NCBI GenBank assembly: GCA_965197585.1
Contig: OZ240215.1
Coordinates: 1,792,001 to 1,856,000, forward strand
Direction of reading: 5' to 3'
Length of the DNA: 64,000 nucleotides
Source of the DNA: Dehalococcoidia bacterium
GTDB taxonomy: Bacteria; Chloroflexota; Dehalococcoidia; Plut-88900
Each line of letters begins with the position of its first letter. The stretch's first letter is position 1. The translations under genes were made by a program, and so were the position numbers. Positions 58,239 to 59,641 of this stretch are shown one piece after another. The notes under the pieces are model-generated. The model worked only from the letters and a program-made list of their open reading frames with translations. It was not told the origin of the DNA and made no database searches.

Positions 58239-58410
58239 GATCGCATCTCCTTTTCTGGATCAGTCTCTTCAGCCATAATCATTATACATCCGTTCACCCA
58301 CCCCCCGCCCTGACACCCCTCATTAGACACTCCCTCCCTCCCTTCTTTCTCGACTCCGATCGGGAATCCATACCGCAGGGTGGGGCCGCTCACCCTTGTA
58401 TATTAGCAAG

Positions 58411-58540
58411 GACATCGGGATAGGCCGAATCATCCTAGGTCAAGAGACCGTTGCTCAGCGTGGTCGTCCCGACACTCCCAAAGTAGAGCCCGAACAGTTG
58501 CCTGGGCTGGAGCAAGCCCGCATCAGCAAGGATGGGTCAA
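58411..58540 (+). ncRNA. Bridge RNA (target- and donor-binding loops)
   Basis: LTG AATCATCCT (58428-36), RTG GCTCAG (58453-58), LDG ACAGTTGC (58494-501), RDG GCAAG (58526-30); each guide pair flanks an internal hairpin inside a closing stem. Confidence 0.82.
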
Positions 58541-58551
58541 AGGAGAGAGGG

Positions 58552-59493
58552 ATGACTAATCAAGGGAAAGCATACGTAGGGATAGACATATCCAAGGGGT
58601 GGGGGGATGTGGTGGTGAGGACCACGGGAGAATCGTGGCGCTTCAATCAGGACGAGGAGGGTATAAAGGATCTGGTAGACCGCCTGGCGGCCTTGCAGCC
58701 GACATTGGTGGTGATGGAGGCCACGGGAGGCTATGAGAGGGCCGTAAGAGAGGCTCTGAGGGGTAAGGCCCCGGTGGCCGTGGTGAACCCGAGACAGGTC
58801 CGGGACTTTGCCCGCTCACAAGGGATGCTAGCCAAGACTGACAGGCTGGACGCAGCCATGATCGCCCACTTTGCCGAGGCAAGCGACCTCGGCCCACAGC
58901 CTCCCAAGAGCCCGCAGTTCCTTGAACTGGACGCCTTGGTATCCAGGCGACGGCAGCTCATAGGGATGAGGACTGGTGAGCAGAACAGGCTGCATGGTGC
59001 AGACCCCGTGGTAAAGAAGAGTATAAAGAAGATGGTGGATGCGCTGGACGAAGCTATCCGCGAGATAGACCGGCAGTTGAAGGACCTGCTGCACAAGTCC
59101 ACCTCCTGGAGTGAACAGGTCATGCTCCTGACAACCGTACCTGGGATAGGCCCCGTGGCAACATGCACACTCCTGGCCGGCCTGCCTGAGCTGGGCCAAC
59201 TCAATCGCAGAGAGATCGCCGCCCTTGTAGGCGTAGCCCCTCTGGCCCGGGACAGCGGCAAGATGCGAGGTCCCCGCACCTGTTGGGGCGGGCGGGCTTA
59301 TGTCAGGGCTGCCCTCTACATGCCCACCCTGGCCGCTGTCCGCTTCAATCCAGTCCTCAAGCAGTTCTACGACCGCTTGGTCGAGGCGGGCAAACCGAAG
59401 AAAGTCGCCATCACAGCATGCATGAGAAAGCTCTTGACCATCCTTAACTCTATGATCAAAACCCAGTCTCCTTGGAGCCCTGTTCATGCTTGA
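58552..59493 (+). CDS. IS110 family transposase/recombinase (DEDD RuvC-like plus Tnp20)
   Basis: [50 protein letters not shown] at 58552 after AGGAGAGAGGG. Confidence 0.96.
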
Positions 59494-59495
59494 CT
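59490..59495 (+). promoter_or_regulatory. -35 half of the IS110 circle-junction promoter
   Basis: TTGACT + 15 nt of right end + TG + TATATT (58399-58404) gives a 17-nt spacer only after circularisation. Confidence 0.8.
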
Positions 59496-59641
59496 ATCAA
59501 CACAGTTGCTGAGCAGAGTCGAAGGGTCGAGCGGAGGGGGCTCACGAAATACCAACTGGCTGCCTCCCACCCTCCAAACCCTTAATGGACACTCCATGAC
59601 CTATAGGTTAGATTACGCTCGAACCTACCCCCCGCTCACCC

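Follow-up and report, generated by a model that had tools for sequence, protein, structure and literature searches.

A putative bridge-RNA-guided insertion sequence of the IS110 group, programmed for a REP-like repeat, in a Dehalococcoidia genome

How does an insertion sequence come to lie at one particular place within a repeat that occurs dozens of times in the same genome, and can that choice be read from the element itself? The question is raised by a window of 64,000 nucleotides from a Dehalococcoidia bacterium (assembly GCA_965197585.1, contig OZ240215.1, positions 1,792,001 to 1,856,000 of the forward strand; the positions below are those of the window), in which an IS110-group insertion sequence at 58397-59510 interrupts a repeat that resembles the repetitive extragenic palindromes (REPs) of other bacteria. 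RNA-guided bridge recombinase systems were first described in 2024. It is very probable that the element is intact and moves by bridge-RNA-guided recombination as IS621 does; the expression of the RNA, the circle and the catalysis we infer from its sequence. The original prediction for this DNA, made from the letters, was a bispecific bridge-RNA system as in IS621, and the features that define such a system are all found at the sequence level: the domains of the recombinase, the CT cores, a two-loop RNA and guides that covary with what they read.

The element lies on the forward strand and measures 1114 bp, one of the two CT cores included, and the span of 58386-59534 given in the original prediction has accordingly been narrowed. 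On the left the letters run GCTCACC (58388-58394), CT (58395-58396) and TGTAT (58397-58401), and on the right ACAGTTG (59502-59508), CT (59509-59510) and GAGC (59511-59514). The CT cores that were predicted as bounds are thus present at both junctions, and when the flanks are put together the repeat is restored around one CT, without target duplication; all other strings quoted in the prediction were also found in their places when the letters were re-read. Alignments with a paralogue and with a sister element, both discussed below, cease exactly at the ends 58397 and 59510. The left end has 155 non-coding nucleotides (58397-58551) and the right end 17 nucleotides past the stop codon (59494-59510), where ACAGTTGCT or a close variant is kept in the parsed orthologues. 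A long left and a short right end define the IS110 group as opposed to the IS1111 group (PMC11208160). Long inverted repeats at the ends were not noted, no dedicated scan having been made. The features are the following, all on the forward strand.

58377-58396, forward: left flank, the 5' arm of the REP-like repeat, a GC-rich hairpin, with the left target TCACC at 58390-58394 and the CT core at 58395-58396
58397-59510, forward: IS110-group insertion sequence, delimited by the joining of the flanks, the ends of paralogue and sister element, and contigs without the element
58399-58404, forward: TATATT, the -10 half of a putative junction promoter, from the joined ends as built by script
58415-58472, forward: predicted target-binding loop (loop 1), from the fold, compensatory pairs and guide-flank covariation
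58488-58537, forward: predicted donor-binding loop (loop 2), from the fold, a guide equal to the right end and guide-end covariation
58540-58545, forward: ribosome-binding site AAGGAG upstream of the recombinase gene
58552-59493, forward: recombinase gene, 313 amino acids plus a TGA stop, from Pfam and PDB matches
59490-59495, forward: TTGACT, the -35 half of the putative junction promoter, overlapping the stop codon
59502-59510, forward: right end, the left donor ACAGTTG and then the CT core, read directly
59511-59536, forward: right flank, the right target GAGCA at 59511-59515 and then the REP-like 3' arm TCGAAGGGTCGAGCGG

The protein encoded by the 313-residue open reading frame (ORF) carries both Pfam domains of the IS110 family, DEDD_Tnp_IS110 (PF01548, 7.3e-27) and Transposase_20 (PF02371, 5.1e-19). 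Its sole matches among solved structures in a phmmer search were ISCro4 (PDB 9t56, 2.8e-36), aligned over residues 7-308, and IS621 (1.1e-33), aligned over residues 8-308. D12, E56, D97, D100 and the pair S235-G236 align with the catalytic D, E, D, D and Ser-Gly of IS621, the roles of which are described in PMC11208158; the intact D-E-D-D and the serine of the Tnp domain that had been claimed for the recombinase are therefore in place. The long frame that starts with TTG at 58396 is nothing more than an open reading frame that extends through the left end.

The left end folds as a bridge RNA would be expected to from the original prediction. Its minimum free energy (MFE) fold over 155 nucleotides consists of two stem-loops, each with an internal loop, and reproduces both of those predicted. 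In loop 1 the outer stem joins 58415-58427 to 58461-58472 (58415-58421 pairs with 58466-58472) and surrounds an inner hairpin at 58438-58449, formed by GGTC (58438-58441) and GACC (58446-58449). In loop 2 the stem is formed by GCCCG (58488-58492) and TGGGT (58533-58537), and the inner hairpin at 58504-58519 by GGGCT (58504-58508) and AGCCC (58515-58519). An alignment of 37 distinct left ends of relatives has the same two-loop structure as its consensus, and with the structure restricted to these four stems 97.7% of the cells are paired as compared to 36-50% when the partners are slid. Moreover, the stems covary. Compensatory changes occur in nine pairs (one of them is UA in 18 left ends, CG in 13, GC in 3 and AU in 2), and the covariation score of 0.303, against 0.145 for shuffles, was reached by 0 of 500 shuffles. 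All compensatory changes lie in the stems of loop 1. The stems of loop 2 are near-invariant and provide no covariation evidence, in agreement with the much stronger conservation stated for the second loop (PMC11208160).

The guides were mapped onto these loops from the pairing scheme of PMC11208160 and not by alignment to IS621. Loop 1 holds the left target guide at 58428-58436 (AATCATCCT, as RNA AAUCAUCCU), the effective part of which is UCAUCCU, and the right target guide at 58452-58458 (UGCUCAG, with GCTCAG at 58453-58458), followed by two bases (58459-58460) in the position of a handshake guide. Read as its reverse complement, the right target guide gives CT-GAGCA, and the match to the site is complete (7/7, CT plus GAGCA); the observation that GCTCAG is the exact reverse complement of CTGAGC was correct and extends to GAGCA. 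The left target guide matches TCACC-CT at six of seven positions and forms a U-G wobble at the other, a U opposite the bottom-strand G at left-target position 6, which is the fourth of the five positions read. Its positions 1-2 do not match the GCTCACC site. This guide had originally been read as 6/9 plus a wobble: the wobble and the match to TCA-CCT stand, but the reading of positions 1-2 does not, these being at background in the 33 guide pairs described below. The site programmed is thus TCATC-CT-GAGCA and the one occupied TCACC-CT-GAGCA, one U-G wobble apart. That the guides program the site, given before as TCAYC-CT-GAGC, is supported; the effective site itself is refined to TCATC-CT-GAGCA, with guides read as 5+2+5.

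Loop 2 reads the ends of the element itself, as had been proposed. The left donor guide at 58494-58501 (ACAGTTGC, as RNA ACAGUUGC) is identical to the right end, ACAGTTG-C, and the right donor guide at 58522-58530 (AUCAGCAAG) pairs with CT-TGTAT discontiguously, two RNA bases being skipped. Such a discontiguous right donor pairing, of nine RNA bases with seven DNA bases, has been described (PMC11208160). The motif GCAAG occurs twice in the region of loop 2, once in the loop (58526-58530) and once within the inner hairpin.

Guides and flanks were also compared among relatives. The first set of relatives was obtained from 401 genomes of the class, of which 31 had a match at E <= 1e-60, with 58 loci; all four parts (two guides and two flanks) could be identified in 42 of the 58, giving 34 unique combinations and 22 distinct guide pairs. 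A second set, from a scan of genome contigs, consisted of 80 loci, of which 29 were parsed and 11 guide pairs were new. The permutation tests score the first site per guide pair and compare its own flanks with 10000 shuffled flanks. For the 22 guide pairs, 94 of 154 non-core positions of the left target were matched (shuffled mean 55.9; 0/10000 shuffles reach this) and 97 of 110 of the right target (shuffled mean 37.1; 0/10000). For the 11 new pairs the counts were 51/77 on the left (shuffled mean 32.9; 1/10000) and 50/55 on the right (shuffled mean 20.5; 0/10000). Covariation of guides and flanks among orthologues, on which the original prediction had staked itself, is therefore found in 33 distinct guide pairs, with own flanks far above shuffled ones. 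Per position, left-target positions 3-7 match in 23-30 of the 33 pairs and right-target positions 1-5 in 27-31; the counts of 5 pairs at left positions 1-2 and of 7 at right position 6 are background. Since matching is limited to left 3-7 and right 1-5, the guides of this clade read 5+2+5 bp.

The donor side varies in the same manner. ACGGTTG is found in guide and right end alike at three loci (L055-L057), and in the second IS110 lineage of the genome, the ends of which read CT-TGTGT, ACCUGCAAG replaces AUCAGCAAG; guide and end have here changed together at the sixth donor position. For the handshake guides no covariation was detected, the observed values being reached by 1557 and 4367 of 5000 shuffles, in a test in which the pattern picked the wrong GCAAG in three rows, that of this element among them. 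In 37/37 left ends a C follows the right target guide, and the right donor guide is nearly always followed by GA.

Before 2024 the site choice of IS110/IS1111 elements that target REPs was usually ascribed to recognition by the protein. On that view the recombinase would itself recognise the repeat, and it would be incidental that the left end is complementary to the flanks. The target is a structured repeat, as such a view would have it. We nevertheless consider targeting by the protein without a guide exceedingly improbable, because the 33 distinct guide pairs, whose targets are quite unlike one another, covary with their flanks at exactly 5+2+5 positions, and because in the sister element two bases have changed in the guide and, in compensation, in the site.

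What, then, is the sequence that the guides are programmed for? The joined flanks, ...GGGGCCGCTCACC-CT-GAGCAGAGTCGAAGGGTCGAGCGG..., constitute one unit of a repeat that is abundant in the 3.43-Mb genome. TCAYCCTGAGC has 56 matches where ~4.4 are expected by base composition, and the 12-mer TCAYCCTGAGCA has 15 where 0.9 are expected, 14 of the 15 in the same GGGGCCGCTCAYCCTGAGCA context. Repeat units with GCTCAYCCTGAG number 68 and matches to the motif of the 3' arm 63; the variants with GAGCA and with GAGGC have 14 units each. The arms of the repeat are complementary and the element is inserted at the top of the 5' arm. The one unit that was looked at in its setting, that of the element, lies between a LytB gene (57297-58238, reverse strand; PF02401) and a family III CoA-transferase gene (59642-60829; PF02515). 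In the single 3.43-Mb contig (completeness 91.9%) no match to a Y1/RAYT transposase (PF01797) was found, control genomes being matched, and we therefore call the repeat REP-like only. With regard to the REP of the original prediction, this means that a short imperfect palindrome in many copies is indeed present, whereas the associated Y1/RAYT gene is not found. The attribution to the Chloroflexota is supported, as the nearest relatives belong to the Dehalococcoidia, a class of that phylum. As a separate observation, the genome has two abundant palindromic repeat families, and no Y1 (RAYT) gene was found in it.

The 5' arm of the repeat (58377-58396) forms an 8-pair hairpin that is followed by the T-rich start of the element, and its score in a scan was terminator-like. 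The hairpin could be a shield against read-through or a structural target signal as reported for ISPpu10. The latter leads to a refinement of the bridge-RNA reading, namely dual recognition, in which the guides pair with the target and the recombinase in addition reads the hairpin at 58377-58396. The 8-pair hairpin has the left target as its 3' arm, this site and 3/6 of the sites of the sister element lie in the same repeat unit, and for ISPpu10 a target stem-loop 5' of the site is reported to act as a specificity gate (10.64898/2026.03.19.712850). Insertions outside the repeat show, however, that the hairpin is not strictly required: these are three insertions of the sister element (L046, L045 and, by its left flank, L067) and the paralogue, which sits inside an fn3/Ig-like gene. 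On the whole we find a second, protein-read signal unlikely, though with some weight on its side.

The sister element occurs in a genome of the same genus at six sites (L043-L047 and L067), and its recombinase is 76-77% identical in amino acids to that of the element described here, the six copies having 76.1 or 75.8% identity to it. The two are alike in their ends, the architecture of the loops and the repeat family that serves as target. They differ in the right target guide, which in the sister reads CT-GAGGC and here CT-GAGCA (a two-base change), in the start of the left guide (AUU and not AAU) and in copy number (six and not one). The prediction that the insertion sites of copies would follow the guides could be checked on this multi-copy sister: the right target is matched in full at 4/6 sites (CT-GAGGC, 3 of these in the same repeat family) and in part at the other two (CT-GGGGC and CT-GGGGG). 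At L045 (also L066) one copy of the sister stands directly after a partial left end of 44 nucleotides, a fragment that ends exactly at the CT of the left target guide. The arrangement suggests that the sister inserted into the guide-encoding DNA of another copy, by construction a perfect left half-target, and that the rest of that copy was then lost.

A second identical copy of the element was not found in its own genome. Present there is a decayed paralogue (L002, 1505-2618; C1:2221804-2222918 in the genome, reverse strand), 76% identical in nucleotides and broken by a TAG stop and frameshifts. The paralogue sits within coding sequence for fn3 and bacterial Ig-like domains, and its right flank, CT-TGTAT, resembles the element's own left end; a right flank of the same kind was found at L018 in another genome. 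The CT-TGTAT flank of L002 may be read as the remnant of a second left end or as a donor-like half-match site. We prefer the latter because the flank belongs to the reading frame of the fn3 domain. 'RD-only half-match' insertions have been described for IS621 (10.64898/2026.08.31.748434), and L002 and L018 are likely natural donor half-match insertions.

Taken together, the elements of this one Dehalococcoidia genus suggest, with a probability that we would put slightly below even, that sister elements have been retargeted between sub-variants of a repeat (GAGCA and GAGGC) by a two-base change of the guide, that a second lineage of seven copies uses the other hairpin of what is apparently the same composite repeat, and that the odd sites are natural footprints of half-matches. 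Half-match insertion is so far known only from IS621, where it was described in E. coli and in vitro. If true, the retargeting and the odd sites (two CT-TGTAT flanks and one copy in guide-encoding DNA) would form a natural record of guide evolution and of its errors.

Contigs of four sequencing runs (Logan contigs) were compared with the locus. In two of the four runs, from two other studies (X3 and X7), 58396 is joined to 59512 and the element is absent; related populations thus have the locus in a form that lacks the element. X3 and X7 also contain near-identical copies of the element on other, short contigs, and a contig of one run, X1, spans both junctions. Short joints to 59516-59518 with 7 letters in between were also seen and are read as other repeat units and not as alleles of the locus. 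The element-free allele of X3 and X7 resembles longer repeat variants found elsewhere in the genome, and the repeat unit itself would therefore vary between populations.

The ends of the element suggest how it might be expressed. When they are joined by script, TTGACT and TATATT come to stand at a spacing of 17 nucleotides, the -35 hexamer overlapping the stop codon and the -10 hexamer falling in the first bases of the left end. The pattern TTGAYN-16..18-TANNNT is fitted by 20/32 distinct junctions of orthologues, these calls being consensus matches only, and a scan of the integrated state found no promoter-like site ahead of the left end. The mechanism that we propose would run as follows. 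The element would excise as a circle, and the joining of right to left end would build the promoter TTGACT-17-TATATT, from which the left-end RNA of ~140 nucleotides and, behind it, the recombinase gene would be transcribed. Loop 1 of this RNA would pair with the target, loop 2 likewise with the joined ends ACAGTTG-CT-TGTAT, and the DEDD/Ser recombinase would exchange strands at the CT core. The programmed site would be the top of a REP-like hairpin that has dozens of putatively intergenic copies, where an insertion probably does the host no harm.

A number of observations speak against bridge-RNA-guided movement and have to be set beside the above. The left end folds no better than shuffles do (z = 0.32; 129/200 shuffles fold at least as well), and the structural support hence comes from covariation and not from stability. 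The MFE fold of the decayed paralogue lacks the two-loop shape, and a search of 58200-59700 against Rfam 15 at E up to 1 gave no match, a result of little weight as it is uncertain that Rfam has a bridge-RNA family. The orthologues are kin, so that the shuffle counts overstate their independence, although guide sets and targets are nonetheless very different. Loci that the patterns could not parse were excluded, 16/58 in the first set (second lineage L003-L009, L037, L041, L036, L040; one boundary missing in L029, L031, L032, L038, L042) and 51/80 in the second (mostly distant relatives from other phyla). The CT-TGTAT flanks of the paralogue and of L018 match the right guide at 0/5 and 1/5 positions, and the right flanks of L023 and L059 match at 2/5 and 1/5, for which no cause was found. 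The allele of X3 and X7 is not a clean empty site: it has 22 other letters at the joint, and its right side has diverged, with 28 other letters and 4 gaps in 462. No joint of right to left end, as in a circle, was present among the Logan contigs, which cannot show rare forms; no RNA runs that contain the element were found; and 12/32 junctions are without the promoter pattern. Finally, the element is single-copy here while 15 TCAYCCTGAGCA sites stand empty.

Some of these points bear on another explanation, that of a relic which looks intact and is immobile in this genome, its guide matches recording a past insertion. It would fit the presence of one copy and one decayed paralogue, the 15 matching sites that are unoccupied and the failure to find an RNA run with the element, and the element may be barely active in the present genome. 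Nonetheless, the ORF is open with all catalytic residues present, and the ends and both loops are intact and in mutual agreement, as the original prediction of an apparently intact ortholog had it. In addition, near-identical copies are found in the contigs of X3 and X7, in which the locus is without the element, and the sister element has six copies. We therefore regard a relic as rather improbable and bridge-RNA-guided movement of an intact element as the better account.

In comparison with known systems the element is closest in kind to IS621 of E. coli (PDB 8wt6 and related). The two share both domains and the catalytic D-E-D-D and Ser-Gly, the CT core, and a layout in which a two-loop RNA is encoded in a long left end and the right end is short. 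In both, each loop has a 5' strand with the sequence of the top strand to the left of the core and a 3' strand that is complementary to what lies to its right, and the right donor guide is discontiguous, with 9 RNA bases to 7 DNA bases (PMC11208160). The protein match is distant, however (phmmer E 1.1e-33), and a blastn search of E. coli genomes with the element DNA, which sought IS621, gave no match. The left end is 155 nucleotides long as compared to an RNA of 177 nucleotides in IS621 (PMC11208158), the left target guide reads 5 and not 7 non-core bases, and the host genome belongs to the Dehalococcoidia. On the right side the target guide covers 5 non-core bases, versus the 4-base guide stated for IS621 (PMC11208160); some orthologues have longer right target guides according to the same paper, and the longer guide found here thus falls within the variation already allowed. 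The best match of solved structure, ISCro4 (PDB 9t56, E 2.8e-36), is likened here by the name of the PDB entry and the protein alignment alone. ISPpu9 and ISPpu10 of Pseudomonas are, by their description, REP-targeting members of the IS110 family that insert into repeated intergenic palindromes (PMC12288879), and ISPpu10 moreover has the target stem-loop 5' of its site (10.64898/2026.03.19.712850). They differ from the present element in repeat family and host phylum, and no Y1/RAYT was found here.

The element is a clear and ordinary new example of a bridge recombinase system, and knowledge of the mechanism is unchanged by it. Thousands of such orthologues have already been predicted (PMC11208160), and this one may be among those in the supplementary data of the IS621 papers. 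We found no paper with both 'IS110' and 'Dehalococcoidia', and REPs together with 'Chloroflex*' only in general surveys, as far as their available text goes. Its value lies in being a compact system from a little-studied phylum (1114 bp, a recombinase of 313 amino acids, a left end of ~155 nucleotides) with guides that can be read with confidence. The sister pair, which differs by a compensatory change of guide and target, is a useful and clean natural example, if an unsurprising one. Together with ~30 related guide sets it makes up a small natural data set on guide length (5+2+5), tolerated mismatches (the U-G wobble) and off-target modes.

The same genome contains a second IS110-group lineage with 7 copies (L003-L009, on contig C1 near 2796209, 1486832, 973617, 2898948, 3412519, 2810751 and 1396820), ~50% identical in amino acids to the element. 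Its left end begins with CT-TGTGTGAC, and the sequence ahead of its insertions is ...CGCGAGGAAT-CT, part of another hairpin repeat, for which CGCGAGGRAYCT has 108 matches in the genome. By eye, the strands of its loop 1 match the flanks at 7/9 positions on the left and at 5-7/8 on the right. The second repeat is found within 200 nucleotides after 15/63 units of the first, which may mean that both belong to a single composite repeat.

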